Source: Myxococcota bacterium
Lineage (GTDB): Bacteria; Myxococcota_A; Polyangia; Nannocystales; Nannocystaceae
Reading direction: 5' to 3'
DNA length: 64,000 bases
NCBI GenBank assembly: GCA_039028615.1
Contig: JBCCHT010000020.1
Span: 149,307-213,306, forward strand
A program made the translations under genes and the position numbers. Below are positions 4,596 through 64,000 of this stretch, one piece after another. A model generated the notes under the pieces. That model saw only the letters and a program-made list of their open reading frames with translations. It was not told the DNA's origin and searched no databases. Positions within the stretch are counted from its first letter, which is position 1; every line of letters begins with the position of its first letter.

Positions 4596-5972
4596 TTGAA
4601 ATCGAATCGAAATGGGCACCAGAGGCGCCGCGTCGTCGCTCGGCCGCGGCGGTTGAGAGAGGCTTGGCGACCGTGTTCAACTCGTAGGGCCTTGCCGTTC
4701 TCCGATCGCCGCGTCGACCCGTCACGAGCCGTTCCCGCCCTGTTGGCGCTCGCGCTGGCGTGGCCCGGCGCGGGGCTCGATGCACGCGCCGCCTCCGAGA
4801 CACACACGCAGATCGACGCGAACGAGGCCGCACCCAAGGCCGGCCAATCGGGCAAGAAGAAGTCCGGCAAGAAAAAGTCGAACAACAAGAAGTCCGGCAA
4901 GAAAAAGTCCGGCAAGAAAAAGTCGAACAACAAGAAGTCCGGCAAGAAAAAGTCGAGCAACCAGTCCAACGAAAACGAGTCGGACGAAGCGGCGCCGGAG
5001 CCAAGTGACGACAACACCGTTTCGGACGCGAACACCGAAGAGACGCTCGAAGCGCTGAAGGAATCGGCGCCGCCCTTGCTTCCCACGACGACGAAAAAGG
5101 AGCCCGAACCGGAACCGGGGGTCAAGGTCGTGACCCCCATTCGGGTCCGAGGCTCCCTGTCTCGCAGCTCGCGGGGCACCTTGGTCAAGCGCCTGGAGGC
5201 CGCGCTCGCGGCCGCCGCTTGGCCCGATGAACCACTGCAAGCGCGGCTCCGGGTCAACGCTTCTCGCAAGCGGCGCTTTGGGATCACCCTGACAATTTCC
5301 GATTTGGAGGGTTCGACCCGGGCCGAAGTCGCCGACGCGTGCGAGTCGTGCTCGGTCGACGATGCCGCCGCGTTGGTCGAAGGACTGGTGGGCAAAGTTG
5401 CGGCCCAGCTACGGCCACCAGAGCCCGTCGCAGGCCCGGCCACGATTACCGTGCGCAGTGACCCGAAGGGGGCATCACTGCGCGTCGATGGCACGCAGCA
5501 TGGAGCCACGCCGCAGACGGTCGAGCTTTCGCCGGGTGACCACGAGCTGGTGCTCGCGAAGCCGGGCTTCACCGAGCTCCGCCAGGCCCTCACCGTAGCC
5601 GCCGACGAGCAACGCGAGCTCGACCTCAAGCTCGTGCCCACGGCGACCGACGACGGACCCAAAGCCGGGCGGGGCTGGACGATCGGTGGCGCCATCGCCC
5701 TCGGCCTCGGCGTGGCCGGAGCCGCCACCGGAGCCGCCTTGATCCTCATCGACGAGAGCGCACCGCCGCTCGAGTGCTCGCCCGACCAGGTCGACTTCCG
5801 CGGCATCTGCCGCCACCGCTACGACACCTTGCTCGGCGGCATCATCGGCGCGGCCGCGGGTGGAGCCGGCATCGCGACCGGCGTCGGCTTGCTCATCAAG
5901 GGCCACCTGGTCTCGGTCAAGGCCCGGGGCAACGCCGAGTCCGCCTCGATGAGCGTCACCCTGCGTTTTTGA
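4596..5972 (+). CDS. PEGA domain-containing membrane protein (true start uncertain, possibly TTG 4692)
   Basis: ITVRSDPKGASLRVDG...GATP...LSPGDHELVLAKPGF PEGA motif; C-terminal Gly-rich TM segments; Lys-rich repeat. Confidence 0.8.
   Translation: MKSNRNGHQRRRVVARPRRLREAWRPCSTRRALPFSDRRVDPSRAVPALLALALAWPGAGLDARAASETHTQIDANEAAPKAGQSGKKKSGKKKSNNKKSGKKKSGKKKSNNKKSGKKKSSNQSNENESDEAAPEPSDDNTVSDANTEETLEALKESAPPLLPTTTKKEPEPEPGVKVVTPIRVRGSLSRSSRGTLVKRLEAALAAAAWPDEPLQARLRVNASRKRRFGITLTISDLEGSTRAEVADACESCSVDDAAALVEGLVGKVAAQLRPPEPVAGPATITVRSDPKGASLRVDGTQHGATPQTVELSPGDHELVLAKPGFTELRQALTVAADEQRELDLKLVPTATDDGPKAGRGWTIGGAIALGLGVAGAATGAALILIDESAPPLECSPDQVDFRGICRHRYDTLLGGIIGAAAGGAGIATGVGLLIKGHLVSVKARGNAESASMSVTLRF
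4851..4955 (+). repeat. Coding tandem repeat, 7 x 15 bp (GKKKS/NNKKS)
   Basis: Units ggcaagaa(a/g)aagtc(c/g) and aacaacaagaagtcc with a duplicated 45-bp higher-order unit. Confidence 0.9.
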
Positions 5973-34940: not shown

Positions 34941-35388
34941 GCCCGCCTATATGAAGCACCGAAACAACGTTGTCCACGGAATCGGGCCCCAAATGGGCGT
35001 TGATGGCCTCGCACAGCCCCTCGCGCTCCGCGCCCACGCCATGTCGATGCGCGACATCCACCCTCGCCGCGCGCCCGTCGCGGATCCCTCCCTCTAGATC
35101 CGCGGCTCTACCGCAGCGGGAGGTCCGCTATTGAACGCGCGCGGCACGTGCCAACAACCACCTGGATGAACCGACGGCAGCGATGTGCCGAAGACGACGA
35201 TCGAATGTGGTCGAAGTGGTCCATCCAAGAGGCACTCGATCTACGAAACGAGAGGCCAATCTCGAGAGCGCCCAGATCGAAGGCGCAGTGTTCGACGGTG
35301 CCACCCGGGCTCGGCACGCAGGCCTCGAGACGGCAACCGACCCCCTGGGAGTAGCGAACCTGGTCGCTTCGTCGTGCCCGTCTCGCCG

Positions 35389-37593
35389 CTACTGCAACAT
35401 CGCGGTCAGCGATAGAGAATCGAAGATCACCGGCCTGCTCGGCACGGGGCCATTGTTGTACACCCAGATCTCCAGCGTGACCGACTGCCCGGCGAACGCC
35501 TCCAGATCCATGTCGATGATATCGACCGTGGAGTCGGCACGGGTGACGGTGACCGAGGCGTTTGTGAGCGCGGAGCCGCCGCTGTCACGGACGAGGAAGT
35601 TGACCAGGGCGGTATCGGTGTTGGGCGCGATGAGCGGGAAGCCGACCTCGGCGCGGATATGAGGGGCCAGGACGAAGCCATTGATGAGGTTGAGGTTGGC
35701 GGGGAGCCGCAGGTCGATGCTTCCCGTGGCGTGGCCGAACCAACCGGAGGCGGGGGTCATGCCGAACATCGAGCCGTCCCAGAGCTTGCCGTCCTCCATC
35801 TTCGCCGAGGTGGTTCCGACGCCGGGTGCACCGTTGGGGGCCCCGTACGTCAAGGGTGTCCCCCCCGACCGCCAAGACGAGAAGTTGCCCGCGTAGGGCA
35901 CCAGCGAGAACACCGAGGGGTTGAGGCCGGCGGCGAGATAGGCGACCTCGACCCCGAACAACTCGGTGGAGCCCTCGCCGAATTCGTCGGCGGCGGCGTC
36001 TCGGAGCGCGTCGGCCAACTCCACGGCCGAGACCTCGCCCGGGCTCAGGTAGTTGGTGATCGTCTCGTAGTAGAGGTTGCGGACGTCCTCGCTCCCGATG
36101 GTCGGCACCATGACGTTGGAATGCGGATGAATGCCGCCGTCCTCGCTCGCCAACAAGGCAAAGGGCAAGCTGAGGATCTGAGAATTTGCGTACTGCCAGT
36201 CTGCCGCCGCGACGTACTCGGAGTAGTGGTCGCCGTCGACGGGCGGCTCGAGTAGGTTACGCGTGACGTCGGGCTCGTTGGTTTCTCCGGCGAGGATGAA
36301 GTCCTCTTCGCCCGTGCCATTGCCGAAGTCGAGCTCGACGAGGGTGCCGAACACGTCCGCGACATGCTCGTGGAAGGACTGGCCTTGGTGGGTGTCGTAG
36401 GAATAGCCTTCTTCCAGCAAGACGTCGTGGGTGAACTCGTGCCCGACGACATCCAAGGGCGTCCAAATCTGGTCGTCCACACCGCTGCCGAACCTGAAGA
36501 CGCCGTTGCCGAGCGCCATCGCGTTCCACTGGTACGCGGAGAAACCCGGGTTGTTGAAGCTCGCGTCGTAGCCCATCTTGATGTTGCCCCCGCTACCGTC
36601 GTAGCTGGACCGCCCGAAGCGCGAGTTGAAGAAGTCGAGCACCTTGCCCATGTTGTCGTGACCGAGCACGGGCTGCTCCTGCACCTCTTCGCACCAATGG
36701 TTATCGGTGTCGGTGAAGGGTGCGGCCTGAGTCCACGTGACCGAACCGCCTTGGTCGTACCCGCGGATCTTGCCCGGCCGGGTGCGATCATGGAGGTGGT
36801 ATTGCGCCCCCCACGGGCGGGTGGTGTTGATGCTGATGCTGTTGCCGAAGGGATCGCAGGCGGTCCCGGTGAGCTGGTGGGTGATGAACTTGGAGCGCAG
36901 CACCTCACCCGAGTGCGCGTCGACCATCAACTGAGCACTGCCCGGAAAATCCTCGGCGAGCACGGAGAGCGACCAGACCAGGTGCGCTTCGCCATCGTCC
37001 ACCAGCGCGAGCAGCTCGGGCGTGGTGTACACGTAGAACTCGCCCTCGACCGCGTAGTATTCGCGAACGCGCTGCTCCAGCGCTCCGGCCCCGAGCGTCG
37101 GGATGGGCTCGAATGCTCCGGGCTCGTCGACGCGATGGGTTCGCGCCTGGAGCGACGCGACTCGGCCATCGCCGCGGACATGGACGACGACTTCGCCCTG
37201 GAACACGGGAACCCCGGCGAGTCGTTGCTGGTAGCGAACGTGGGTGACCTCCGAGGTCGAGTCCGTGGTGGCCCGGGTCAGCGAGATGCCGTCTCGCTCG
37301 CGCCAGAGCATCGGCAGCCGCTCGAGGGTTTCATCGGCGATCACCTCGGGCGCGCGCGGATCCGGCTCGTGCAGCGGCCCACGCAGGTGCACCGTGCCCT
37401 CGTCTCGGTCGTAGCTGGCCACCTCCAGCTCGGGACGGGCGACGAGCAGGGCCTCGATCGAAGCCCCGCTGTCGTCAGCCTCCTCGGCCTCTGCTCGCTC
37501 GTCGATCTCGGGGTCGAAGGGCTCCGGCTCGACACACGCCGAGGCCAGACCAAGCAGGGCAAGGCCGGTGAGAGACACGCTATTTCGAGACAT
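35389..37593 (-). CDS. M4 (thermolysin) family metallopeptidase, lipoprotein, with FTP/PepSY propeptide and C-terminal beta domain
   Basis: LASAC; HVRYQQRLAGVPV; VDAHSGEV; FGRSSYDGSG; DVVGHEFTH; HEHVADVFG. Confidence 0.9.
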   Translation of the reverse strand: MSRNSVSLTGLALLGLASACVEPEPFDPEIDERAEAEEADDSGASIEALLVARPELEVASYDRDEGTVHLRGPLHEPDPRAPEVIADETLERLPMLWRERDGISLTRATTDSTSEVTHVRYQQRLAGVPVFQGEVVVHVRGDGRVASLQARTHRVDEPGAFEPIPTLGAGALEQRVREYYAVEGEFYVYTTPELLALVDDGEAHLVWSLSVLAEDFPGSAQLMVDAHSGEVLRSKFITHQLTGTACDPFGNSISINTTRPWGAQYHLHDRTRPGKIRGYDQGGSVTWTQAAPFTDTDNHWCEEVQEQPVLGHDNMGKVLDFFNSRFGRSSYDGSGGNIKMGYDASFNNPGFSAYQWNAMALGNGVFRFGSGVDDQIWTPLDVVGHEFTHDVLLEEGYSYDTHQGQSFHEHVADVFGTLVELDFGNGTGEEDFILAGETNEPDVTRNLLEPPVDGDHYSEYVAAADWQYANSQILSLPFALLASEDGGIHPHSNVMVPTIGSEDVRNLYYETITNYLSPGEVSAVELADALRDAAADEFGEGSTELFGVEVAYLAAGLNPSVFSLVPYAGNFSSWRSGGTPLTYGAPNGAPGVGTTSAKMEDGKLWDGSMFGMTPASGWFGHATGSIDLRLPANLNLINGFVLAPHIRAEVGFPLIAPNTDTALVNFLVRDSGGSALTNASVTVTRADSTVDIIDMDLEAFAGQSVTLEIWVYNNGPVPSRPVIFDSLSLTAMLQ

Positions 37594-37660
37594 GCTCCCT
37601 CATTGCCGCGCCCGATCTGGCCGATGACGAGAAAACCGAGAGAATTTTCGCCACGCCGCG
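37594..37660 (-). promoter_or_regulatory. Conserved upstream region shared by both M4 genes (copy 1)
   Basis: Minus strand CGTCATCG...GGCAATGAGGG..CATG also found at 39923-39970. Confidence 0.55.
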
Positions 37661-37711
37661 ATCGGCTCCGGCGGGCCCGAGTCGTCGTGCCCGCCGGAGT
37701 CCATGCGCGCG

Positions 37712-39922
37712 CTACTGCACGAGCTGGATCATCGACAGCGTGTCGAACATGACCGGCCGCGTCGGCACGGGCCCGGTGTTGTAGACGTAGACCTCGAGCG
37801 TGATCGCCTGACCCGCGAAGGCCTCGAGATCCATGTCGATGACGTCGACGGTGTCGTCGTCCCGGCGAATGGTCCGCGACGAGTTGGTCAGCACGGTGCC
37901 GGCGCTGTCCTTGATCACGAGGTTGACCAGGGCCTCGTCGGTGTCGACGGCGATGAGCGGGAATCCGACCTCCGCGAGGATGTGCGGCGCCAGGACGCTG
38001 CCCCCCAGCGGGATGTTGGCGGGAAGCTGCAGGTCGAAGCTGCCCATGACGCGCCCGAAGAACCCGGCCGCGGGGGTCATGCCGAACATCGAGCCGTCCC
38101 AGAGCTTGCCGTCCTCCATCTTCGCCGAGGTGTTGCCCGCCCCGGGGGAGCTCTGCGCGGACCCGTAGGTCACCGCCGTGCTGCCCGACTCCCAAGTGTC
38201 GAAGTTGCCCACGTAGGGGATGAGCGAGAGGCTCGAGGGCGTGATGCCAGCGGCGAGATAGGCCACCTCGACGCCGAACTTCTCGTCGGAGCTGTCGCCG
38301 AACATGTCCCCCGCCGCATCCGCGAGGCCGGCCCCGAGCTCGCCGAACGAGACCGGACCCGGGCTGAGGTAGTTGGTGATCGTCTCGTAGTAGAGGTCGC
38401 GGACGTCGGACATCCCGATCGACGGCACGATCACGTTCGAGTGCGGGTGCGTGCCCGCGTTGCCGGCCAGCATCGCGAAGGGCAGGCTGAGGATCTGCGA
38501 GTTCGCGTGCTGGGCGTTGCCCGTAGTGTCGAACTCGGAGTAGTGATCGCGACCGGTGGGCGGCGACAGCAAGTCGCGAATCGGCGTCACGCCGTTCACT
38601 TCCTCGCCCATCAGGAAGTTCTCCTGCCCCGAGGCGTTGCCGAAATCGAACTCCACCAAGGTACCGAAGACGTCCGCGCCGTGCTCGTGGAAGGCCGCGC
38701 CCTCATCGGACGTGGTGTCGAGGCCTTCGGCGTGCAGCATGGCGTGGGTGAACTCGTGCCCCACCACGTCCAGCGGCATCCAGACTTCGCCCGCGGCACC
38801 GCCTCCGAACTTGAAGCGCCCGTTGCCGATGGAGGTCGCGTTCCACTGCACCGCCGACGGGCCACCGAAATTGAAGCTCGCGTCGAAGCCCATCTTGATG
38901 TTGCCGCCGCTGCCGTTGTAGCTGGAGCGACCGTAGCGGGAGTCGAAGAAGTCGAGCACCTTGCCCATGTTGTCGTGGCCGAGCACGGCCTCCTCTTGGG
39001 CGGGTGCGCACCAGTCGTTGTCGGTGTCGGTCAGCGGAGCCGACTGCGTCCATGTGAACGAGCCCCCCTGATCGTACCCGCGGATCTTCCCCGGCCGCGT
39101 CTTGTCGTGCAGCTGATACTGCGCCCCGAGCGGCTTGGTGGGGTTGATGAGCAGGTTATTGCCGAAGGGATCACACCCGGTCCCGGTCAGGTGGTCCGCG
39201 ATGAAATCCTCGCGCCGGACTTCGCCCGTGCGAGCGTCGACCAGCAAGTCGGCGCTGCCCGGGAAGTCCTCGGCGAGCACGGACAACGACCAGACCAGGT
39301 TCGCCTCGCCGTCGTCGACGAGGGCAAACAGCTCGGGATCGGTGTACTCCAGGAAGTCGCCCTCGACCGCAAAATGGTCGCGAACGAGCGATTCGAGCTT
39401 CTCCCGGCCGATCGCCGGCTTCGGGTCGAAGGACTCGCCATTGTCGACCCGATGCGCCTGCCCCTGCAGGGACGCGACCCGGCCGTCCTCGCGCACGTGC
39501 ACCACGACCTCGCCCTGATAGACGGGAACATCCGCGACCCGCTGCTCATAGCGGACGTGGGTGACCTTCGAACGCAATCCGGTTTTGGACTCCGAGCGAG
39601 ACAGCGCGACCCGATCTGTGGCCCCCCACAGCACGGAGAACTCGTCGAGCGTCTCGTCGGCGACGACCTCGGGGCTCCGCGAATCGGGCCCGTGCAGCTG
39701 TCCCCGAACGACGAGCGTTCCTGCTCGCTGGTCGAAGGCAGCCACTTCCATCTCGGGGTGAGCGATGCGCAAGGCTTCGATCGCAGAGGCATCGACCTGG
39801 GCCTCGAGTGGCTCCAGGTCGACACGCTCGTCGATCTCGGTTTCGAGGATCAGAGGCTCGGCGCAGGCAGAGACCGACCCGAGTAGCAACAGGCCCTTCA
39901 AGGCTAGGCTTTTTCGCGACAT
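37712..39922 (-). CDS. M4 family metallopeptidase, tandem paralog
   Basis: VSAC; DVVGHEFTHAM; HEHGADVFG; HANSQI; colinear with 35389-37593. Confidence 0.9.
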   Translation of the reverse strand: MSRKSLALKGLLLLGSVSACAEPLILETEIDERVDLEPLEAQVDASAIEALRIAHPEMEVAAFDQRAGTLVVRGQLHGPDSRSPEVVADETLDEFSVLWGATDRVALSRSESKTGLRSKVTHVRYEQRVADVPVYQGEVVVHVREDGRVASLQGQAHRVDNGESFDPKPAIGREKLESLVRDHFAVEGDFLEYTDPELFALVDDGEANLVWSLSVLAEDFPGSADLLVDARTGEVRREDFIADHLTGTGCDPFGNNLLINPTKPLGAQYQLHDKTRPGKIRGYDQGGSFTWTQSAPLTDTDNDWCAPAQEEAVLGHDNMGKVLDFFDSRYGRSSYNGSGGNIKMGFDASFNFGGPSAVQWNATSIGNGRFKFGGGAAGEVWMPLDVVGHEFTHAMLHAEGLDTTSDEGAAFHEHGADVFGTLVEFDFGNASGQENFLMGEEVNGVTPIRDLLSPPTGRDHYSEFDTTGNAQHANSQILSLPFAMLAGNAGTHPHSNVIVPSIGMSDVRDLYYETITNYLSPGPVSFGELGAGLADAAGDMFGDSSDEKFGVEVAYLAAGITPSSLSLIPYVGNFDTWESGSTAVTYGSAQSSPGAGNTSAKMEDGKLWDGSMFGMTPAAGFFGRVMGSFDLQLPANIPLGGSVLAPHILAEVGFPLIAVDTDEALVNLVIKDSAGTVLTNSSRTIRRDDDTVDVIDMDLEAFAGQAITLEVYVYNTGPVPTRPVMFDTLSMIQLVQ

Positions 39923-50945: not shown

Positions 50946-52454
50946 TCAGCGACGCGGCGGGAGCTCGGCTTCGTCGCGGGCGGCCCACAGGGCCTCCACG
51001 TTGGCGCGATAGCGCTGGGTCTCTTCGCTGAGTTCGGCCTCGCCGCGGAGCGTGGCGCGAAGCCGCGTAGGCCCGCCGTTGTAGGCCGCCGCCGCTCGCC
51101 CGATGGCTTCGTCACCGCCGCCTTCCCCGAAGTTCTTCAGCTGACGGGCGAAAAACCAGGTGCCCATGTCGAGGTTGTAGGCGGGGTCGTCGAGTTCATC
51201 GGCCGTGGGCTCGGCCAGGCCCCGCTCGCGAGCGATGCCCACCGCGGTGCTGGGCGTCACCTGCATCAGGCCACGCGCACCGCTGAAACTACGGGCGGTG
51301 GGATTGCCGTTGGACTCGAGCAGCACGAGGATGGCCACGAGATCGGGCTCGACCCCGTAGCGGTTGCCTGCCTCCACGATCTCGGCCTCGAACCGCCGCA
51401 CGGACTCGGGCAGCCAAGCGATGGACAGCTCGCTCGGCTGTGCCTCTTCGGCATTCGCCGCGGCTGCAACCTCGGCCGGCTCTGCGTTGACTTCGGCCTC
51501 CGGAGCCTCGGTGCCCGCTTCTTCCTTGGGGGCGGAGTCGTAGCGCGCGATGCAACCCACGGCGACGGTGATGCCGAGCACGAGGCCGCCCGCGAGCGGA
51601 GCGAGCCGCGGGGGACGAGACAGCGGGCGAGGTTCACGGGAGACGATGTGACGGATGCGGGACATGAGCTGACCTTGTCGAGCCGCCAGGGCGAGGGCGG
51701 GCACGGGTTGGGGGGTGGCCGCGAGCTCGGCGAGCGCACGGGCGTAGTCGAGGGGAGCGTGGAGGGCATCGACCACGAGGTCGTCGCAGGCCTGCTCGCG
51801 AGTCTGGCGAAGCTCGGCCGAGATCCACCAGACCACGGGATGAAAGAACAGCAGGATTTCGACGACGCGCTGGACGATGCCCAGCAACACGTCGTGGCGT
51901 CGTACGTGCGCGAGTTCGTGGGCGAGCAGCGACTCGACCCAGGCCACGGGCATGCGGGTGGCGAGACCGAGCGGAAGCAAGATCATCGGTCGCACCACGC
52001 CGGTGACCATCGGGGTCTCGACGGCGGGAGACTCGACCACGACGACGCGACGCCGCACGCCGAGGCGCTCGCGCAAGCGATCGACCGGCTCGGCGAGTTC
52101 ACGCAGAGGCAAGCCAGTGGCCCGTAGGGCGAGCAGGCGCCAGAAACCGAGCCCGGTCCGTACCGCGAAGATCGAGGCACCCGCCGCCCATGCGCCGGTC
52201 ACCACCAATGCCCACGGCGGCAGCCAGTTGTCGACGGCAGCGACCGGCCCCGAGAAGCCGGACGATCCCGCGACCAGCCAGGCCATCGTGCCCAGTACGA
52301 TCACGGGTGCCGTGAGCAGCCAGGCGAACTCGATCCCATAGCGAACCGAGGCCGACCGCGAGCGGAGCCACGGACGGACGGCCCAATAGGCAGCCCCGAG
52401 CAACAGCCCCTGCCACAGGAAATGCAGCAACGCGGTGGCGAGCAGGACGATCAT
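50946..52454 (-). CDS. BlaR1-type M56 peptidase fused to a lytic transglycosylase (SLT) domain
   Basis: LLHFLWQG; AHELAHVRRHD; FFHPVVW; EQACD; then LLESNGN, GARGLMQV, AAYNGG. Confidence 0.9.
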   Translation of the reverse strand: MIVLLATALLHFLWQGLLLGAAYWAVRPWLRSRSASVRYGIEFAWLLTAPVIVLGTMAWLVAGSSGFSGPVAAVDNWLPPWALVVTGAWAAGASIFAVRTGLGFWRLLALRATGLPLRELAEPVDRLRERLGVRRRVVVVESPAVETPMVTGVVRPMILLPLGLATRMPVAWVESLLAHELAHVRRHDVLLGIVQRVVEILLFFHPVVWWISAELRQTREQACDDLVVDALHAPLDYARALAELAATPQPVPALALAARQGQLMSRIRHIVSREPRPLSRPPRLAPLAGGLVLGITVAVGCIARYDSAPKEEAGTEAPEAEVNAEPAEVAAAANAEEAQPSELSIAWLPESVRRFEAEIVEAGNRYGVEPDLVAILVLLESNGNPTARSFSGARGLMQVTPSTAVGIARERGLAEPTADELDDPAYNLDMGTWFFARQLKNFGEGGGDEAIGRAAAAYNGGPTRLRATLRGEAELSEETQRYRANVEALWAARDEAELPPRR

Positions 52455-52834
52455 GACGACTTGCCCTCGTCGCTTCGCTCCGCCAAAAACGTACGGATCT
52501 GGTCGAGCTCTTCTTCGCTCACCCGATCGGGAGACAGCGCGCGCATCACCAACGATGCGACCGAGCCCCCGAAGGCCTTGGCCGCCAGATCGTCGACCAA
52601 GCGCTGCTGGATGTCGTCGCGGCTGACGATCGCCTCGTAGACGTGGCTACGGCGTTGGTCGTCGCGTGCGACCAGGCCCTTGTCGAGCATGATCTGCAGC
52701 AGCTTCAGCACCGTGGTGTAGCCGGTGCCCCGCTCGGGCTCGAGCACGGAGTGGACCTGGCGCACCGTACTCGGTCCGCGCTCCCACAACACGCCCAGAA
52801 TGCCCATTTCTGCCTCTGTCGGGCGATTTGGCAT
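52451..52834 (-). CDS. blaI: BlaI/MecI/CopY family repressor
   Basis: PTEAEMGILGVLWERGPSTVRQV, YTTVLKLLQIMLDKGLV, FGGS; ATGA overlap with M56 gene. Confidence 0.92.
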   Translation of the reverse strand: MPNRPTEAEMGILGVLWERGPSTVRQVHSVLEPERGTGYTTVLKLLQIMLDKGLVARDDQRRSHVYEAIVSRDDIQQRLVDDLAAKAFGGSVASLVMRALSPDRVSEEELDQIRTFLAERSDEGKSS

Positions 52835-54774: not shown

Positions 54775-55169
54775 GCGTTCGGAGCGTAGCAGGCCCGGCG
54801 CACGAAAGCCGGGGCCGTCTCAGGGGTGACGCATCATGGCCCGTGTCTGGGGTGACGGCGCACGATCGACTCGAGGATCGGAACGTCGACGAACACGCTC
54901 CGCCAAAAGAACCCGCCATGGCCCAACCGCTGCGACCCGAGCAAGACCGGGTCGAGCGCGAGCCCGAAGATGGCGGACGGCCCGGTACCCGAACACGGAC
55001 TGTTTCGCCACCACGCGCAACGGATTGGCACGTTGAGAGAAATGGCGCCGGGCGTCGCCGAAAACCACTCGCTTCGTTCGCCGTAGGCCCGCGTGACCGA
55101 GCCGAAATCGGCGTGAAGGGTGCAAGTGCCGAGCAATGCGAGCTGCTATGGTGAGAGCTCTTAGGACCC

Positions 55170-55976
55170 TTGCTCATGCTCGTACTCGGCACCGTTGCTC
55201 TCGCCTCGCTGTTCGCCCTCGCCCCCGAAGGCCCCGACGACATCTACGAGCCGCCCATGCTCGAGATCGGCGGGCCGCCGCCCTGTGACTTCGACGTGGA
55301 CTGTCGCTGGGAAGAGCGCCCCTTTTGCCACCCCGACACCCAGCAGTGCTCCGAGTGCCTCGGGGACGAGCACTGTGACGAGGGCTGGAGCTGCAACCCG
55401 GTCGGTACTTGCGTCGACGCGTGCGAGACCGACGAGGACTGCGAAGGCGTCAACGACCAGGACACCTGCGATCCCGCGACGAACTCGTGCGTGCAGTGTG
55501 TGACCTCCGACGATTGCGAGGCCGCCGAATACTGCATGGAGTCGTACTGCTACAACGACCACTGCGAGCCGGGCGAGCTGATCTGCGTGGGCAACACCCT
55601 CATGGAGTGCCTGGAGGACGGCGGCTCCATCTCGAAGTACGAGGAGTGCTTTCCCAAGTGCATCTACAACGAGAAGGGTGACGACGAATGCCAAGCCAAG
55701 GGTGGCGACGACGGCTTCGATACCGGAGACGATGGCTTCCCTCCCGCGACCTCGGGTGGAGAACCAACGACGGGCGTCCACCCCACGGGCGGGTCGATGG
55801 ATGGGACGACCCTGCCCCAGGGTGATCCGATGAGCAGCGTGACCTCCGACTCGGGCGACGCGGGTGGAGTGTCGGGGCGAGGCTGCAGCTGCCGCAGCGA
55901 CGGCGACACCCCGGCCGCGCCGTGGGGCGGGCTGGGCTTGGTGGTCCTGCTGGCGCTACGCCGCCGCCGGCACTAG
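55170..55976 (+). CDS. Cys-rich secreted protein with MYXO-CTERM sorting signal
   Basis: Signal peptide; CxxDxDC repeats; C-terminal GCSCR...LGLVVLLALRRRRH. Confidence 0.88.
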   Translation: MLMLVLGTVALASLFALAPEGPDDIYEPPMLEIGGPPPCDFDVDCRWEERPFCHPDTQQCSECLGDEHCDEGWSCNPVGTCVDACETDEDCEGVNDQDTCDPATNSCVQCVTSDDCEAAEYCMESYCYNDHCEPGELICVGNTLMECLEDGGSISKYEECFPKCIYNEKGDDECQAKGGDDGFDTGDDGFPPATSGGEPTTGVHPTGGSMDGTTLPQGDPMSSVTSDSGDAGGVSGRGCSCRSDGDTPAAPWGGLGLVVLLALRRRRH

Positions 55977-56252
55977 TGTGGTGAGTCCTCAACGGAACGA
56001 CGCGGCAAGAAGAACCTGATGGCATGGAACAGCCAAGTAGCCAGTACGGCGCGGCTCGTGATCTGCATGGAGTGCGCAGCGGCTATTCCGTACCGTTCGA
56101 GATCGATGCGCCAGCGTGACGGCAGGTCCGTTGGTACGGGCTCGTTCCCACCGCACCGAAACCACCGAAGTGAGCGCCCACCAGCTTTGCGTGTGACAAC
56201 GGTGGCCACTATGGGCAATCGGACCCGGACCCCGATCTCGAAGTGCGAGCAC

Positions 56253-56615
56253 CTATCGCACGGGGTTTGTCAGCCACTCGTGACATGAGCCATGCTGCGG
56301 AAAATTCGTGTTCTGCCCCCCCGTCAAGGTCGCCTTTACCCACCGCAGATCCCAGTTTTGGCCATTGGAAATCTTGACGGTGAGATCCACGTCCTTATTG
56401 CTCTCGTTTTCAATTCGCTCGCACGCCGTCGGCCCACTTCCCGGTTCATCGCGAAATTCGGGCGTCCTCCTGAACAATTGAGTTTCGATCATCGCAGTAT
56501 AACTCGAGGCCGTATCGATGAGAGTCGAACCTCCAAAAGGCCCGTAAATAGGGGGCACCAGAATCCACCTTGCCATGCCAAGCAGCACAACCCTCCACCG
56601 ACAAAGAGACACCAC
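56253..56615 (-). CDS. Possible small hypothetical protein in low-GC tract (start uncertain)
   Basis: Open frame with plausible composition in its 3' two-thirds; no recognisable family. Confidence 0.3.
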   Translation of the reverse strand: MVSLCRWRVVLLGMARWILVPPIYGPFGGSTLIDTASSYTAMIETQLFRRTPEFRDEPGSGPTACERIENESNKDVDLTVKISNGQNWDLRWVKATLTGGQNTNFPQHGSCHEWLTNPVR

Positions 56616-56739
56616 GACAACCCGCCATAAGTCATCACACTATTGACACAACCCCACTGGCAGGCGCCCACAAGAGAACACCACATTGGCTACCCGTGGG
56701 CATTGATACAATTGCCAAGCAACTCGGAAACGCGTCTGA

Positions 56740-56904
56740 GCGGACAGGTGCCATTCGTTGAAAATTCGGGGTGGCCCAGGCCTACCCACCGCGTCAGACT
56801 CCCCTTCAGCTTCGCCCCTTAAGGCCCGCGTCAGTCCTGAACTACGCCTGCACTCTCCGCAGGTTTACATATGTCGCAATTATCGGCGAAATTCCCGGGT
56901 GCGG
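56740..56904. mobile_element. ~165-bp non-coding element, copy 1 (MITE-like, dif-like site at 56862-56890)
   Basis: Direct repeat of 61234-61399; imperfect terminal inverted repeats; GCGG at both ends. Confidence 0.75.
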
Positions 56905-57476
56905 GCGGCCGAACTCCATGTCGTCTCTGGCCCAACCGTGGCGGCCGTTGCATACGCTGGGGGCGAGGGCGTGTCGCTGGAGGCGGCGCAGATGCTCGGG
57001 ACAGTGGAGGGGGCAGCTAGTGCCGTCGCGACGCAGCCAAAGAGACGCGCATCTCAGCGGACGGCGTCGTCACGGAAGGTCGATCGGATCGCCGACCAAC
57101 GGAGCGCACGTGCCGCAAAAGAGGGAGGGATCGCTGATGACGCATTTGTTGTTCGCGGAGGCGTAGCGACGAAGGAGCAGATCGCAAAGGGCATCGGCCC
57201 GCACCGTGACGTTCCTGGCTTGGAGGGCTTCTCAGCTCAGTCCAGGGCAGGCGCCACGGTGGAGGAACTTGCTGCTACCGGTGGCGTTGGGGGCAGGCCT
57301 TTCCCACATGGGCAAGTCAGCGTTACAACAGCTGGAAACTCAGATGTATAGGGTGCGAGGTAGTGCGGAGTCCTGGAGGTGGTGCGAACCACGTTACCGT
57401 CACCCCAGGGAAGGCAACCCCGGCCGATATTGCCGGTCAGTTTACCCAGCGGCCCAACCCCGCGAGGCGAGAATGA
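56905..57476 (+). pseudogene. Orphan polymorphic (RHS-type) toxin C-terminus, frameshifted
   Basis: No start; FVVRGG...GFSAQS...ELA...PHGQVSVTT; adding one base at the A-run 57336-57338 continues LRCIGCEVVRSPGGGANHVTV to a TGA overlapping the next ATG. Confidence 0.7.
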
Positions 57477-57706
57477 AGGAAATCTACGCAGACTTCAACG
57501 ATGTCGCGGCGGACCGAACGTTGCCTCTCACCTGTGTCGGCAGTCGGACGAGCATTGACGAGCTACCCGAGAACTTGAAAGAGGGAGAGGAAGTCAGGCT
57601 CACGGATGGGGAGCTAGTTGCCGTAGCGACTGTCCACCGTCGGGAAGACGGAATTTGGGAGGCGCGCTCGGATTGGGAGTTCCGGCACAATAAGGAGCAG
57701 GATTGA
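57473..57706 (+). CDS. Putative immunity protein (77 aa)
   Basis: ATGA coupling to toxin frame; MKEIYADFND...LKEGEEVRLTDGEL...WEARSDW; small, acidic. Confidence 0.7.
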   Translation: MKEIYADFNDVAADRTLPLTCVGSRTSIDELPENLKEGEEVRLTDGELVAVATVHRREDGIWEARSDWEFRHNKEQD

Positions 57707-57965
57707 ACGCTCACGCACGGCGGCGAACAGCCTCGACGGCGTGGTTGGTGACGACCTCCCGTTGTGAGCGACGATGCCCTTGCGCTCGCGGCGTGCCACG
57801 AATGCACGCAAACTCATAGTCGGCATTGCGTGATTGGCCTTCGGTGTTCACGGCTTGCTCCCCGTGTTCTTGGCCGGCCGTGTTCATCGCCGTGGAGCCG
57901 TCATCTCATCCAACGAAAGGAAGCCTGGCGCCCTCGTCCTGGCGAGACAGCTCTTCGTTGGCAGC

Positions 57966-58268
57966 CTACTGAACCCGTCGCAGGTCGATTCGATCCAGCA
58001 CCTTCTTGGTCACCGGCCGCTTCTCATCGGGAACCAGCAGCGCCCGCAGCAACGACTGGACCGGCAGCGACTGCAGCTGCTCCAACGCCCGCCGGGCCGC
58101 CCCCTCCTCCTCGAAGCCGATGAAGTAGCAGGTGTCATCCAGCATCATCGGTCGGCCCGACTCGTCCAGGCCGATCAGCGAGAACTCGCTCTTCTCGTAG
58201 AGCCCGGAAATGGCGACCTTCCACGGCGCAAAGGAGTAGGGCCCGAGCCCGAACACGTCGTCGATCAT
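57966..58268 (-). pseudogene. C-terminal fragment of a type II adenine DNA methyltransferase-like gene
   Basis: FGLGPYSFAPWKVAISGLY...PMMLDDTCYF...KRPVTKKVLDRIDL; catalytic motifs absent; recognition from memory. Confidence 0.6.
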
Positions 58269-58378
58269 GGTCCGTGGGAGTTCCTCCTCGGGCGACGCGG
58301 ACGACCTGCATCGGCAAGCTCGACCGGAGACTCACGATCGTTTCTCGACGCCGGCCACCCGACGCACGCACGCTACGC

Positions 58379-60136
58379 TCAGTCCGCGCAGCACATCACG
58401 CCGGCCGTATCATTGTAGTTGCAGCCGCCGAGGTACGCCTGCGGATAGTACAGCTGCGAGACGACGGTCCCACAGCTATGCCAGTTGCACTGGTTTCCCA
58501 TCGGGTCGTCGACCTGAGGCGCACAGACGCGCATCGGCTCCCCCTGTCGACAAGGCGTACCACCGCTCTGCACCGCCATGCAGCTTCCACTCCCCTGGCC
58601 GCCATACTGCAGATTGGTCGATAGCCAGTAGTGGTGGTCGGGAACGACGAGAGGGCCATCGAAGATGCTCACGTTGTTGGCCACGTACTCCTCATGGCTA
58701 CACACATGGTAGCCGTCCGCGCACATGAGATCGCGGACGAACGGAGCGCTCACCACGCTCGCCGCACAGCCATACATCACGTCGGGGACGAACACCTGGG
58801 CCTTGCCCACGCACCCGGTCTCGACCGGGTACTCGTCCATGAGCCACGTCATGATCTCACCCGTCCCGAAGTCGTCGACGTCCTCGTCTGGGTGCGTGCT
58901 CCCGTGCTGATTGGTGAGCACGATGTATGCGTGGTCGCGATCGGGAACGACCCGGAACTTCGAGGTGAACTTCTCGGGGCCGTTCGCACCCGAGTGCGAT
59001 AGATAGTCCGCCCATTCGGTGCGCGCTTCGCCGTCCAGGTGAGTCCAGCCGAACGCGTAGTCGAGGCCAAACGGCGCCGCGTGCAAGGTCTGGAGCGGCT
59101 CCCGCTCGTCCCTCATGTGGTACGCGGCGTACTTCGCCAGGCCATGGACGTCGCAGACCACGTTCTTGGCCGGGTCGTAGAAGTGCGGATACGGATCTCG
59201 GAGACCATAGGTGACGTTCTGCCCCGCCCCCATCACCTCACCCGACCACTGGTGCCCGCGCGCCGTGGGAGGATTCAAGGCATCGATCACGTTGCATTGC
59301 GTCATCCCCAGCGGAGAGAACAACCGCTGGGCGATGTTCCACTCGAAGGTCGTCGAGTTGGTCTTCTCGATCAGTGCACCCGCGACCGCATAGCCGATGT
59401 TGGTGTACTCGTAGTCGGACATCGCGAGCGGATCGATCTCCCCGTCGGCGTCGATGTCCGCGAAGTAGATCCGATCCATGATGAACCCCCAGCGATGATC
59501 GAAACCGGACTCAGGGGCCGGGTTCTGCCAGTCGTAGACCGAGAGGACGGACGACTTCGGATAGCCGCCGTAGTGTGCCAACAAGGCCGTGACCGTGGCT
59601 TGATCGCGATCGTTGCCGAACTCGACGCCCGCGTAGCCGGGATGGCCTGGCGCCATGAGGATGGACCCCACGGTGTCGGTCCACGAGAGCAGGCCGTCGT
59701 CGACCATGTCGCCGAGCACGGTCGCCGTCATGCTCTTCGTGACCGAGCCGATGAGGAAGGTGTCGGTGTCCTCCATGGCCTCGCCGGTCTCGACGTTGGC
59801 CACTCCCGTGACGCCCAGGTGCGTGATGTAGTCCCCCTCCACCACCGCGACCACCGCGCCCGCGACGTGCTCGCCGGCGAGGAACGTTTGGAGGTGCTGG
59901 CTGATGTCCTCCGCGGAGGCCGCATCGCGCGGCGAGGTCAGCACGGCATCGACCGGCTCCATCGTCTCGTGCGACTCGCGCGTCTGCCGCGGTAGCGGTA
60001 GCGGCTCGTCACGCACCTGCGGCTCGTCGTCGATGACCTCCAGCTCATCGTCGAGCTCGACATCCATGCACCCTACGAGCGACGAGACAGCGAGCACGCA
60101 GAGGCCCCTACGGACAATCGTCTTCGGTTCATTCAT
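58379..60136 (-). CDS. Serine hydrolase (beta-lactamase class C-like) lipoprotein with Cys-rich C-terminal domain
   Basis: GGAGG RBS; LVGC lipobox; IGSVTKS (SxxK), YTNIGY (YxN), HSG. Confidence 0.88.
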   Translation of the reverse strand: MNEPKTIVRRGLCVLAVSSLVGCMDVELDDELEVIDDEPQVRDEPLPLPRQTRESHETMEPVDAVLTSPRDAASAEDISQHLQTFLAGEHVAGAVVAVVEGDYITHLGVTGVANVETGEAMEDTDTFLIGSVTKSMTATVLGDMVDDGLLSWTDTVGSILMAPGHPGYAGVEFGNDRDQATVTALLAHYGGYPKSSVLSVYDWQNPAPESGFDHRWGFIMDRIYFADIDADGEIDPLAMSDYEYTNIGYAVAGALIEKTNSTTFEWNIAQRLFSPLGMTQCNVIDALNPPTARGHQWSGEVMGAGQNVTYGLRDPYPHFYDPAKNVVCDVHGLAKYAAYHMRDEREPLQTLHAAPFGLDYAFGWTHLDGEARTEWADYLSHSGANGPEKFTSKFRVVPDRDHAYIVLTNQHGSTHPDEDVDDFGTGEIMTWLMDEYPVETGCVGKAQVFVPDVMYGCAASVVSAPFVRDLMCADGYHVCSHEEYVANNVSIFDGPLVVPDHHYWLSTNLQYGGQGSGSCMAVQSGGTPCRQGEPMRVCAPQVDDPMGNQCNWHSCGTVVSQLYYPQAYLGGCNYNDTAGVMCCAD

Positions 60137-60253
60137 GACAGGTCCCTCCCGGAGGGCGAAAGGCACGTCACACACCACCGTCGCGCGACGGTGGCAGACG
60201 GGCGAGACGCCCCGGTTCCCTCGACTAGGTCCGCGAGCTCGCCGTGCGGATCA

Positions 60254-61233
60254 CTAGCAGGCTGTTAAAAAGCGGGCATCCTTGACGATTTTTCGCTGAG
60301 GTGACCGTGGCTTGACCCTCTCGCGGTTGATTCGGAGCCTCTCGGGGGGGCAGGTCGGTGGCCTGCCCCCCTGCTCCCTCATGTCGTAGCGGCCATCAGC
60401 CGAGATATCCGCAAAATGTTGTAGGCCTTGCCCAGGATGTACGCGGCCATCTGGGTGCGTTCAGTGCCACGGAAGCGAGTTCGGCGTAGTCCTCCTACGG
60501 TCTTGAACCAACCAAAGATCTCCTCGATCCGCCTCCGAACCCTTTGGCTGATGGCGTAGCCAGCGTGACGAGTGGTTCGGCCGTCGATGGCCGAACCTCT
60601 ATGCTCGGTGATGTTCTGCGTGACGTGGGGGGTGAATCCCCTTCGTCGTAGCTCAGCGACGAAAGCCTTGGTGTCGTAGTTTTTGTCCGCCCCGACGGTC
60701 ACGCCAGGGCCTTCACCGACGTTGCATGCGAGCATCTCGAGCGCGGCATCCCGCTCGAGTCGCCCGTTCATGATGTCGATCCGGAAATCGACGAGCAGTC
60801 CGTGGCGGTTCTCCATCAAGGCGTTGCCGCCGAAACACAACTTGGCCTCTCGCCCATTGCCCTTGCGCCACAACCGAGCCTCTGGGTCCGTCTTGGACTC
60901 GTGGGTCTCGTTGCTGCGCTTCTTGCCGCGAAAATCAGACCAGCCGTTGTGGTCGTCGTCGTCATCGTCCTTGGGACGAAAACTCTTCGCCGAAGCCCAA
61001 GCTTCGATCATCGTGCCGTCCACGCTGAAGTGTTCCGAGCTCATCAGCCCTGCTGACCGCGCCTGGTCAACCACCGCGTCGAAGAACCGAACGGCGACCT
61101 CGTGCTCGAGCAGCCGGTCTCGGTTCTTGGCGAAAGTCGAATGATCGAAAGCATCCTCGACCATGTCCATGTCGAGAAACCACCGGTACAGCAGGTTGTA
61201 CTGGAGTTGCTCGCACAACTGCCGCTCGCTGCG
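60254..61233 (-). mobile_element. IS5-family insertion sequence, left end missing
   Basis: CTAG target + CAGGCTGTTAAAAA inverted repeat; hairpin at 60345-60371; transposase reading toward this end. Confidence 0.88.
60379..61233 (-). pseudogene. IS5-family DDE transposase, 5'-truncated
   Basis: RSERQLCEQLQYNLLYRWF, DHSTFAKNR, VDGT, GADKNYD, RRRIEEIFGW; N-terminus replaced by the 165-bp element. Confidence 0.88.
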
Positions 61234-61399
61234 GCGGATAGGTGCCATTCGCTGGAAATTCGGGGTGGCTCCGATGTACCCACCGCGTCAGGCTCACGCT
61301 GAGCTTCGCCCCCTCGAGGCACGCGTCAGTCCTGAACTACGCGTGCACTCTCCGCAGGTTTACATATGTCGCAATTATCGGCGAAATTCCCGGGTGCGG
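61234..61399. mobile_element. ~165-bp non-coding element, copy 2 (dif-like site at 61357-61385)
   Basis: Last 78 bp differ from copy 1 at one base; first half more diverged. Confidence 0.75.
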
Positions 61400-61765
61400 C
61401 CCGCACTGGAGCACGCTGCGGCCCCCCAAAGGGCCCGGGTGCGGGCCGACGAGCGCCGCCGCCTGGTGGAGCCCGAGTCTCGCGTCACCCGCTGCTCGAC
61501 GACGGCCTCGAGGTCGCCTGGTACGAGCTGCCGGCCAACAGCTCCAGCGGCGAGATGTAGGCCAACCGAGCCGGCGTGGTCGAGCTGGTCACCGTGCTCG
61601 ACGGGACCCTCACCCTCGTGCTGGGCGGCGACGAGCACGTGCTCGCCAAGGACGACGGAGCCATGTACTCGCCCACCGCCACCACCGAGTATCGCAACGA
61701 CCAGGCGCGCAAGAAGTGCCGGTTCCTGCTGCTCAGCGACAGCTCCAAGGCCGGCTCCGGCATGA
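61400..61765 (+). pseudogene. Fragment of XRE/cupin transcriptional regulator (cupin part only)
   Basis: LEVAWYELPA...VVELVTVLDGTLTL...YRN; in-frame TAG at 61558-61560, frameshift near 61490, no HTH. Confidence 0.6.
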
Positions 61766-62217
61766 CCGACCCCGCCCCCACCGAGCAGCGCTTCACCTCC
61801 CGCTGGGGCCTCATCCTCAGCGTGCTCGGCATCGCCGTGGGCACCGGCAACATCTGGAGGTTCCCGCGCATCGCCGCCAACAACGGCGGCGAGGCGGGGG
61901 CCGGCGCCTTCTTGGTCGCGTGGGTGGTGTTCCTGCTGGTGTGGAGCCTGCCGCTGATCATCGCCGAGTACGCGCTGGGTCGCTCCGCCCGCAAGGGCGT
62001 GGTGGGCAGCGTGCTCCACCACGGCGGCCCCCGCCGCACCTGGATGGGCGCGTTCGTGGGGCTCACCGCCACCGCGATCATGTTCTACTACTCGGTCGTC
62101 GCCGGCTGGTGCATCCACGACGTGGCCGCCACCAGCCTGCACGACCTGCCCACCACCACCGCCGCCTCCACCGGGATCTGGGAGTCGGTGGGTTGCTGCT
62201 CGCCAACCGGTGGCTGA
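61762..62217 (+). pseudogene. 5' fragment of sodium-dependent transporter (SNF/NSS family)
   Basis: FTSRWGLILSVLGIAVGTGNIWRFP, GAFL, FYYSVVAGW; ends after about three TM helices. Confidence 0.82.
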
Positions 62218-62315
62218 CGCGGCGGCTGGAGTGAGGGTGATGGCCGTTCGAAGAGCGGCCGACGCGAGCATTCGGCTCGCGTCGGCCCCGGTATCGGAGG
62301 AGAGCTCCGGCGAGA

Positions 62316-63686
62316 TCAGATGCACTCGCCGGGCTGGCACTCCACCGCGCCCACGTCCATGTCGTCACCGGGGTTCCGCGACTCCCCCCGCTGGTCGACG
62401 GGGCTCACCCAGACGCCGCCGAACGCGTCGATCATCGGGCTCCCGGGCAGCGGCATCATCGTGGGCGTCGGGCCCCCGTTGTCGGCGAGCGGCCCCACCT
62501 GGAGGTCGGTGTTGGTCAGATCGTTGGGCGCCGTGTCGCAGCTGTCGTCGGCGAACACGTTGTATCCGAACGTGAGGTTCGGCGTCGGGCCACCACATGC
62601 CGGGTTGCCGGGGTGGCCATCGATGGCGTTGAGGACGAAGTCCATCGTCCCACCATTCCGGTAGAACGCCCCGAGGTGAGACGCGTTGTCCACCGCCGTC
62701 ACGTGCGACGCGCCGAACCATCCCGAGTTGTTCACAACCGAGCCCTGCTGCGCCGCGTTGAGAGCAAAGGTGCTGTTGTGCACCATCATGTGGCCATCGC
62801 TCTCCACTCGGATGGTGCCCTGCAGCAGCTGGTTGTGGGAGAACGTGGAGCTCGACACGGTGCCGGTCATGTTGTCGCTCACCCGCACCCCATACTGGCT
62901 CGAGTTGTTGTCGTGGAAGTGCATGTCGTCGATGTCATAAGGCCCCTGCATGTCGACGATGACGTCGCCCTGACAGTCGGAGACCTCCACGCCGTCCATC
63001 GTGGAGTCGTCGTAGTCCACCGACAGGACCGCGCCGCTCCCGTTGGCCTCGTTCGCGGTGAAGGTTGCATCGTAGATCCACGCGAAGCTCGCCCCGCCGA
63101 CGTCCCCGACCCCGCGCACCACGCTCCCACTCGCGGAGTCGGTGGTGTTGCCAGTGAACGTCGTCCCCTGGATCAGCAGGTCGGCATCGTCGGCGTAGAC
63201 CACCTCCGTGTCGTAGTCGAACGAGTGCACCTCGGACTGAGAGAAGTAGACGTACTGGGCGCCGTCGGCATGGATCGCACCTGCATCGGCGGCCACCCCC
63301 TCCACGGAGACGCCGCCGAACATCACCCACGTGTCACTGCCGGTCGCGTGCATCCCGAACTCACCCGGGAGATCCACCTGGATCGTCGTCTGGCCGACCC
63401 CGGCACCCGAGATGAAGATCGCGTCCTTGATGTCGATCGGCCCCTCGACGACATTGTCGATCACATAGGTATCGGCCGAGAGCACGATCGTGTCCCAGTC
63501 GTGCGACTGGCTCGCCCGATAGACGGCGGTCCGCAGCGAGCACATTCCCGGTATCCCAGCGCGACATGCCCCGGGCGTGAAGGTGTCCGCCGTGGTATCG
63601 ACGACGATCGTCGCCGCCAGGGCCGTGGAGCTGGGCAGCACGCCGGCCACGCCGACCAGCAGAGCGATGAGGTTCGAACGCTTCAT
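62316..63686 (-). CDS. Secreted CSLREA/beta-helix protein with choice-of-anchor Q C-terminus
   Basis: Signal peptide ending ALA; VDTTADT...CSLRTAV; LADNGGPTPTMMPLPGSPMIDA...DQRG...DVGAVE. Confidence 0.85.
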   Translation of the reverse strand: MKRSNLIALLVGVAGVLPSSTALAATIVVDTTADTFTPGACRAGIPGMCSLRTAVYRASQSHDWDTIVLSADTYVIDNVVEGPIDIKDAIFISGAGVGQTTIQVDLPGEFGMHATGSDTWVMFGGVSVEGVAADAGAIHADGAQYVYFSQSEVHSFDYDTEVVYADDADLLIQGTTFTGNTTDSASGSVVRGVGDVGGASFAWIYDATFTANEANGSGAVLSVDYDDSTMDGVEVSDCQGDVIVDMQGPYDIDDMHFHDNNSSQYGVRVSDNMTGTVSSSTFSHNQLLQGTIRVESDGHMMVHNSTFALNAAQQGSVVNNSGWFGASHVTAVDNASHLGAFYRNGGTMDFVLNAIDGHPGNPACGGPTPNLTFGYNVFADDSCDTAPNDLTNTDLQVGPLADNGGPTPTMMPLPGSPMIDAFGGVWVSPVDQRGESRNPGDDMDVGAVECQPGECI

Positions 63687-64000
63687 CGAATCTTCCGTTT
63701 CATCTTCGTGGGGTAGCTCGAAGCAACGAGGAAGGCCCCACGCCCTCCCTCGAACGCGACCGTTCGTCGATCGCATCAACGACGGTCCACAATGCCGACG
63801 AGTGGATCACGGATTTTCAAGTGGATCCGATCTTTGGTGGTAGAGCCGATACCGAGCCATCGTAGGTTCGAGAGACACTCGATCGTGGGCCCCTTCGAAC
63901 GGACGCGGGGGGCCGCGCGGCGACAGCCCCGGGGGGGCCCCGGGTGGCGGGGGGGGGCAGAAAATAACACACAAACCCGGAGTGTTTAAAAAGGGCCCCC

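Follow-up and report, generated by a model that had tools for sequence, protein, structure and literature searches.

Two non-coding repeats at gene breakpoints in a Myxococcota genome are probably transposase-free origin ends of an ISCR-like IS91-family element

The window, a 64,000-nucleotide stretch of DNA from the Myxococcota bacterium assembly GCA_039028615.1 (contig JBCCHT010000020.1, positions 149,307 to 213,306), is the final 64 kb of contig C20 of the source genome G000 (12.27 Mb, 68% GC, 94 contigs, 96.7% complete) and contains two non-coding repeats, copies a and b, that probably derive from the origin (oriIS) end of an ISCR-like element of the IS91 family. The sequence comes from a metagenome assembly, and the window stops at a contig end. 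A protein of the congener G005 is identical to one that bears the name of a Paraliomyxa transposase, so the host is a myxobacterium. Copy a (56740..56904, 165 bp) and copy b (61234..61433, approx. 200 bp) are both assigned to the minus strand, that of the missing transposase, and have their fixed tip, the likely oriIS, at 56740 and 61234, respectively. The original prediction, made from the letters alone, described direct repeats at 56740-56904 and 61234-61399, and these are indeed identical in 148 of 166 alignment columns (blastn E 1.8e-56). It was also right that the first half is more diverged, as 17 differences fall within the first 88 columns and 1 within the last 78 (Fisher p 1e-4). In particular, the left half of copy a matches copy b and the copies on contigs C25 and C35 at 70-71 of 87 positions and its right half matches copy b at 69 of 70, while the left half of copy b matches the C25 copy at 85 of 88; this mosaic identity points to sequence exchange between copies. 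Copy b remains homologous with copies on C85 and C80 and in genome G005 up to approx. 61433, which is approx. 35 bp beyond the right end first proposed for it. All four repeat junctions each lie within a single Logan contig at depth 18-21 with no alternative letters, and the stretch occurs in only one sequencing run, a marine metagenome that is possibly the very source of the assembly; two further runs (X2 and X3) lack the organism.

Three of the four flanks are genes without their 5′ part, as had been noticed from the sequence. The ragged end of copy a is joined to the frameshifted C-terminal tip of an Rhs-type interbacterial toxin (56905..57476, plus strand), which matches the C-terminus of a gene at locus L281 in two frames (tblastn, 80% over 69 aa and 55% over 56 aa); the L281 open reading frame (ORF) carries the TIGR03696 Rhs core, and an atlas search with the tip gave weak leads only. 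A 77-aa ORF (57473..57706, plus strand), which by its position encodes a putative immunity protein, has a homologue behind the Rhs gene in L281 and was found on no viral contig. On the tip side of copy b, an IS5-family transposase gene (60379..61233, minus strand) that points away from the repeat is cut exactly at the tip; it lacks approx. 74 N-terminal codons, matches NF033581 from profile position 51, and its missing N-terminus was not found anywhere in the G000 assembly. At the ragged end of copy b, an XRE-cupin pseudogene (61438..61765, plus strand) has lost its helix-turn-helix (HTH) part (approx. 77 codons) and bears a further small deletion and a premature stop, and an intact paralogue on C7, with HTH_3 and Cupin_2, is 79% identical at the nucleotide level from 61438. 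The 4.3-kb mosaic between the copies has one long open frame, a beta-lactamase-family (serine hydrolase) gene (58379..60178, minus strand; PF00144, E 7.8e-35), and also holds a 3′ gene fragment (57966..58268, minus strand) with a longer paralogue on C40 (71% nucleotide identity). A sodium:neurotransmitter symporter pseudogene (61762..62234, plus strand), whose C7 paralogue has approx. 507 aa, follows the XRE-cupin remnant and has a large internal deletion. The left and right flanks of each copy belong to different genes, and no duplicated target is present.

The repeat is not confined to this locus. A sequence-only model built from 8 copies, which match by construction, was searched in 73 genomes and found 32 matches in five of them, every one in this genus (10 in G000, 15 in G001, 5 in G005 and 1 each in G004 and G003; G001-G005 are congeners of the source genome), and none in 67 genomes of other genera. 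Copies a and b are two of the 10 copies in G000, whose flanks are unrelated, so the copy-number check suggested with the original prediction yielded more than two, and its description of a non-autonomous, multi-copy piece of a mobile element at gene breakpoints, with no mobilising enzyme nearby, stands. Most G000 copies sit in lower-GC DNA, and six of the 10 lie within 12 kb of a contig end (the 15-kb end zone makes up 20% of the assembly). Co-oriented pairs like a and b also occur on G005 C11 and G001 C402. At the far end, homology among copies stops anywhere from approx. 41 to more than 280 bp from the tip, including approx. 41, 96-103, 158 and 203 bp. The C25 copy is a miniature with internal deletions, composed of a 5′ leader, a scrap of the transposase N-terminus and 103 bp of this end. 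A beta-helix protein gene in the window (62316-63779, at the contig end) has a C25 paralogue (137-437) that is cut at the tip of this mini-element, and more paralogues on C15. Segments 93% identical are common to island contigs near element ends (C25 818-991 and C39 85936-86109; C85 6765-7107 and C86 1-354, all in G000); the 174-bp segment of C25 and C39, which was considered as a candidate terminator (terIS), was not found in five relatives. These segments may be either terminator region or captured DNA. An exact 16-mer scan of genome contigs returned 120 stretches, none aligning beyond the pattern at useful significance, and a gapped-pattern scan of metagenome contigs returned 2 stretches with no transposase; both results are attributed to chance. 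The end of C20 and the start of C25, compared as possibly contiguous, showed no overlap.

The tip, by contrast with the ragged far end, is fixed. Among the 30 copies surveyed at locus level (those of the 32 matches that came with loci), 24 were chosen for a tip profile, in which one row is off by one base; 6 were dropped as having the end lost, diverged or at a contig edge. The commonest base reaches 0.83-1.0 at 7 of the first 9 positions inside the tip and only 0.33-0.54 of rows at positions -8 to -1 outside it. No fixed target tetranucleotide lies beside the tip in these copies (commonest base at -4..-1, 0.42-0.50), and tip flanks are likewise variable in G036, G063 and G008, which belong to other, related genera. 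The original prediction took GCGG for a fixed target, and both copies do start with GCGG and have it at the right end proposed for them. However, in 7 IS5 homologues that span the copy b junction the next codon is Ile or Val, so the GCGG at 61234-61237 is extra rather than native, and GCGG is absent from a C15 paralogue of the C35 flank. On this comparison, GCGG is the first four bases of the element tip and not target sequence, and the right boundary is no element end, given that copy b is homologous to approx. 61433 and other copies stop elsewhere. Over 5-6 bases, the tip was probably similar to the original IS5 sequence at this site, and therefore the position of the cut is not resolved to within one base. 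Four copies (copy b, C25, G005 C156 and G001 C665) truncate a gene on the tip side, and in each case this gene is oriented away from the element. The tip itself occurs as a short tandem duplication at L145, L169, G005 C158 (L226), G008 C13 53494-53554 and G063 C20 79921-79998.

The family was assigned through the DNA that adjoins the copies. Transposase remnants of the Y2/HUH type lie beside five of the 30 copies (G000 C17, G000 C25, G001 C1322, G001 C665 and G005 C156), which bears on the search for longer elements proposed earlier and places the repeat, for which no known insertion sequence end had been recognised, at the end of an IS91/ISCR-family element. The C17 remnant is a transposase C-terminus (E 1.7e-6), the C25 remnant is an N-terminus identical to transposase P0033 at 20 of 24 residues, and the G001 C1322 remnant shows 76% identity. 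In G005 C156, the homologous stretch is the DNA from the transposase stop codon to approx. 320 bp downstream, and therefore the repeat is the 3′ non-coding end; this G005 end matches a profile made from G000 copies alone (E 0.0017) and aligns over its full length. The parent protein scores above the cut-off for both PF14319 and PF04986 (proteins of L179 and L177). P0033 scores 361 bits against NF052416 (ISCR clade Ia, cut-off 925) and 88 bits against NF033538 (IS91), below both cut-offs; by these scores it is ISCR-like but not a member of ISCR clade Ia. Plasmid relatives of the transposase are 34-43% identical, and the annotated ones (42-43%) are ISVsa3/ISCR2 or IS91-family enzymes. On the transposase (minus) strand the tip reads CCTATCCGC, with the variant form CCTACCCTC. 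The ISCR1 oriIS terminates in CCTATACCC according to PMC13023784, and CCTATCCGC agrees with it, in register, at 7 of the last 9 bases. The ISCR2 copy in L277 ends in the same tip core, and, judged by eye, five of 30 Y2 loci of other genera end in close variants of the tip (L148, L149, L151, L160 and L165). The traits found are those of the IS91 family: an HUH/Y2 parent, a fixed oriIS end behind the stop codon, no terminal inverted repeats and, as far as the flanks show, no target-site duplication.

Of 72 other genomes in the family, 56 have Y2 transposase matches, and no intact gene was found in G000 with PF04986 (the control was silent, but the family was matched in 56 relatives), with PF14319 (a weak C10 match is an opposite-strand frame) or with P0033 (four fragments). 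An intact transposase may be missing from the assembly, because the run holds a depth-57 variant that the assembly lacks. A homologue on C18 was considered as a helper in trans and set aside: it is without the segment bearing the predicted catalytic tyrosine, and in G002, where the homologue is open, the end is absent. This diverged IS91-like HUH gene (G000 C18 approx. 51700-52570, L368) occupies the same place in six of six genomes of the genus, with loci L171, L173, L174, L175 and L176 in the five relatives, where the frame is open over 383-519 aa from stop to stop. It is possibly a domesticated transposase, and the gene just downstream of it presumably encodes a MATE-like transporter. In each of three independent transposase remnants (L177 on G001 C842, G000 C80 17237-17350 and G000 C17 144593-144709), the break lies at most a few codons from one shared C-terminal motif, which may be chance or a preferred break point.

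Sister elements in related genera display this kind of pattern more clearly. Searches with their own ends gave 43 matches in G036 and 37 in G063. The loci examined in G036 contain 33 distinct ends, 13 of which are at least 94% identical to one reference; in this tip-anchored truncation series, 12 of the 13 retain the tip and are truncated at 12 different positions, 133-947 bp away from it. In 14 near-complete sister loci, a ragged 5′ side is seen. Moreover, three pairs with different tip flanks have both the element and DNA upstream of it in common, over 2758 bp (G008), 2239 bp (G063) and 3102 bp (G063/G036); the last, at L355 (G063 C34) and L358 (G036 C34), is 96.9% identical between two species and includes at least 1.3 kb of upstream DNA. 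One G008 unit of this kind carries an ORF that we take to be glyoxalase-like. The nested truncations and the element-plus-flank units fit one-ended transposition, as far as sequence comparison can tell. No defined terIS was seen in the sister subfamily, with no dominant motif at 12 and 8 junctions and with ragged 5′ ends in the 14 loci; CAG was tried as a terminator, picked post hoc among 64 triplets, and fell to 5 of 12 and 3 of 8 when more junctions were added. Sister ends mostly share an orientation within blocks and are mixed in G036. Islands dense in recent nested origin-anchored fragments lie at G036 C18 90000-172000, G063 C20 58000-105000 and G008 C13 20000-58000.

Taken together, these observations make it probable that the repeats are transposase-free 3′ (oriIS-side) ends of an ISCR-like IS91-family element of this myxobacterial genus, with the tip as the likely oriIS. 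One-ended transposition likely brought them to their sites, and deletion and recombination likely altered them afterwards. The repeats are a mobile-DNA remnant of a kind already known and not a new element type; no description of this myxobacterial subfamily was found in the literature covered, which extends to neither subscription papers, supplements nor ISfinder. By analogy with IS91/ISCR biology, the transposase would nick at the tip (56740 and 61234) and join it to a target without duplication and without a fixed sequence, copying inward, which is rightwards in the window. As this group appears to have no fixed terminator, copying would end early, leaving oriIS-only fragments, or late, taking in neighbouring DNA. 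Each copy has one gene on its left and a different one on its right, and for this reason a second event, be it intramolecular strand transfer, ordinary deletion or a crossover between copies, would have removed the 5′ parts of the IS5, Rhs and XRE-cupin genes. The window would then have the history suggested for the sister subfamilies, namely origin-anchored insertion followed by loss of neighbouring DNA, with exchange between copies, and the copies would now be inert unless an unassembled intact element supplies the transposase. There are published precedents for several of these steps. IS91 initiates at oriIS, fails to terminate in 1-14% of events and makes no target duplication, and a mini-IS91 moves with transposase provided in trans (PMC13181058). 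Right-end fragments of IS801 of 229, 360 and 679 nt transpose and account for 26% of IS801 insertions (PMC3189936). An IS91 circle with cargo has been described (PMC5737581), and the commonest same-strand neighbours of the ISCR1 oriIS are truncated insertion sequence transposases (PMC6218425).

Several points weigh against this interpretation. A complete element belonging to precisely this subfamily was not recovered, so the oriIS function is assigned by position and homology. The conservation of the tip is partly built in, since the copies were retrieved with a model starting at the tip. No conserved subterminal hairpin was detected (z 0.2 to 2.0 against shuffles, no covariation), whereas palindromes are described for the oriIS ends of the IS91 family; folds of the ends repeatedly show a 5-bp stem, which does not exceed shuffles and has no covariation. 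Empty sites were sought and none was found: at C3 the neighbours differ in all four relatives compared, and no single insertion is proven. The nested truncations and cargo units come from other genera, whose ends fail to match the window model. Breaks in the symporter gene and in the fragment with the C40 paralogue lie away from any element end; therefore, ordinary deletion also acts in the island. Rearrangement was judged to be the origin of most genomic IS801 fragments (PMC3189936), and, as of 2018, transposition had not been shown for any ISCR element (PMC6218425).

Another proposal is that whole elements inserted once and were then trimmed, together with their surroundings, by ordinary host deletion alone, the short ends arising without transposase. 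Deletions without element ends in the same island, the internal deletions of the C25 mini-element, transposase pieces on C80 with neither element end and the conclusion reached on IS801 in PMC3189936 all speak for such passive debris. Nevertheless, G036 copies that are near-identical (97-100%) retain the tip and have lost the far side from 12 different points, in a search that was anchored on the tip and left far-end-only fragments uncounted, and we regard this explanation as quite unlikely. An alternative that is also unlikely, if somewhat easier to entertain, follows the earlier suggestion of a composite unit with the DNA between the copies: copy a and the 4.3-kb mosaic up to copy b would be one cassette, copied from origin to origin in trans or brought in as a circle by crossover within the repeat. 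The two copies are co-oriented, as in the pairs on G005 C11 and G001 C402, their right halves are near-identical, and element-plus-flank units recur in the sister subfamilies. Moreover, an ISCR28 remnant whose second oriIS captures the intervening gene, a 'two oriIS sandwich', is described in PMC12772301, citing Yuan 2024. The locus itself offers no evidence for such a unit: there is no second copy of the mosaic in G000, only the one run holds the stretch, its depth of 20.1 equals that of the flanks (18-21), no excision joint is listed among the assembled contigs, and the mosaic consists mostly of pseudogenes with internal breaks of their own.

Two further explanations fare considerably worse. 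The original prediction envisaged a self-contained element that is bounded by imperfect inverted repeats and has GCGG as its target, which would be MITE-like (miniature inverted-repeat transposable element) and moved by a DDE transposase or recombinase. The inverted match does exceed shuffles, at 16 of 27 and 15 of 27 positions (p 0.0002 and 0.0013 in the register proposed; p 0.002 and 0.012 when 11 registers are allowed), GCGG closes copy a, and it reappears in C35 near the corresponding position. However, 14 other copies reach only 10-14 of 27 even at the best of 5 registers, the right end is not fixed, homology continues into the Y2 transposase gene, and the GCGG is missing from the native IS5 sequence and the C15 paralogue, with no duplicated target. 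This model is very improbable, the repeat being more probably one end, the oriIS side, of a longer element with a ragged far side. The comparison with Rfam that had been proposed gave 0 covariance-model matches in window 55000-64000 at E up to 1. An assembly artefact or a local duplication might be suspected in a metagenome assembly with the window at a contig end, the more so as a run of 54 identical bases exceeds the 31-letter word, so that contigs do not prove the pairing of flanks. Such an origin is practically negligible in view of 10 copies with unrelated flanks and junctions inside single contigs at even depth.

Two observations concern other parts of the window. Two paralogous genes, 71-80% identical in blocks, lie in tandem at 35387-39571 and repeat every approx. 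2320 bp, and a 15-bp tandem repeat at 4848-4982 corresponds to a Ser/Gly/Asn/Lys-rich repeat on the plus strand.

At the window locus the finding means little, as it concerns two remnants in a decaying accessory island. In some genomes of the family, on the other hand, recent nested fragments anchored on the origin number in the dozens, and several of them include captured flanks. It has tentatively been considered that ISCR-like elements without a fixed terminator might form a bacterial Helitron-like shuffling system in this myxobacterial family, in which a few intact copies continually produce orphan origins as well as units of origin plus cargo, both of which accumulate in islands, and each orphan origin turns the DNA that follows it into a cassette open to copying in trans. 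If this were true, the accessory genome of these 10-Mb predators would have been built in this way. The junction series and intact enzymes such as P0033 provide natural material on how ISCR-type elements start, stop and capture genes.

Among known systems, IS91, IS801 and IS1294, together with the mini IS801 right-end fragments, share the enzyme family and the lack of terminal inverted repeats and target duplication (PMC13181058 and PMC3189936), and the IS801 fragments are likewise short origin-end pieces of approx. 200 nt. In contrast to the repeats described here, in which neither was found (terIS having been sought in the sister subfamily only), in these elements a fixed tetranucleotide serves as the target, and terIS is defined, with a matching cleavage tetranucleotide. 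MITEs and TIMEs (miniature elements with inverted repeats, derived from Tn3) are similarly short, non-coding, multi-copy, located at breakpoints and able to bracket cargo; here, however, there is no fixed second end, no true inverted repeat and no target duplication, and the parent enzyme is HUH rather than DDE. ISCR1, ISCR2/ISVsa3 and ISCR28, with their truncated or additional oriIS copies, have in common with the present elements an HUH/Y2 transposase of approx. 500-580 aa, an oriIS located approx. 200-320 bp behind the stop codon, the tip core CCTA(T/C), a far end that is not fixed, truncated genes next to oriIS and two co-oriented oriIS around cargo. Unlike those elements, the present ones reside in chromosomal islands of marine myxobacteria and not on resistance plasmids, have the tip CCTATCCGC/CCTACCCTC and fall below the NF052416 cut-off; most copies are without any coding sequence, the cargo is a pseudogene mosaic, and a sigma-70 consensus search at copy a found no outward promoter. 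Truncated non-autonomous Helitrons offer an analogy, as they combine rolling-circle HUH chemistry with one fixed end and the capture of gene fragments, but they are eukaryotic and have a helicase and a defined hairpin terminator.

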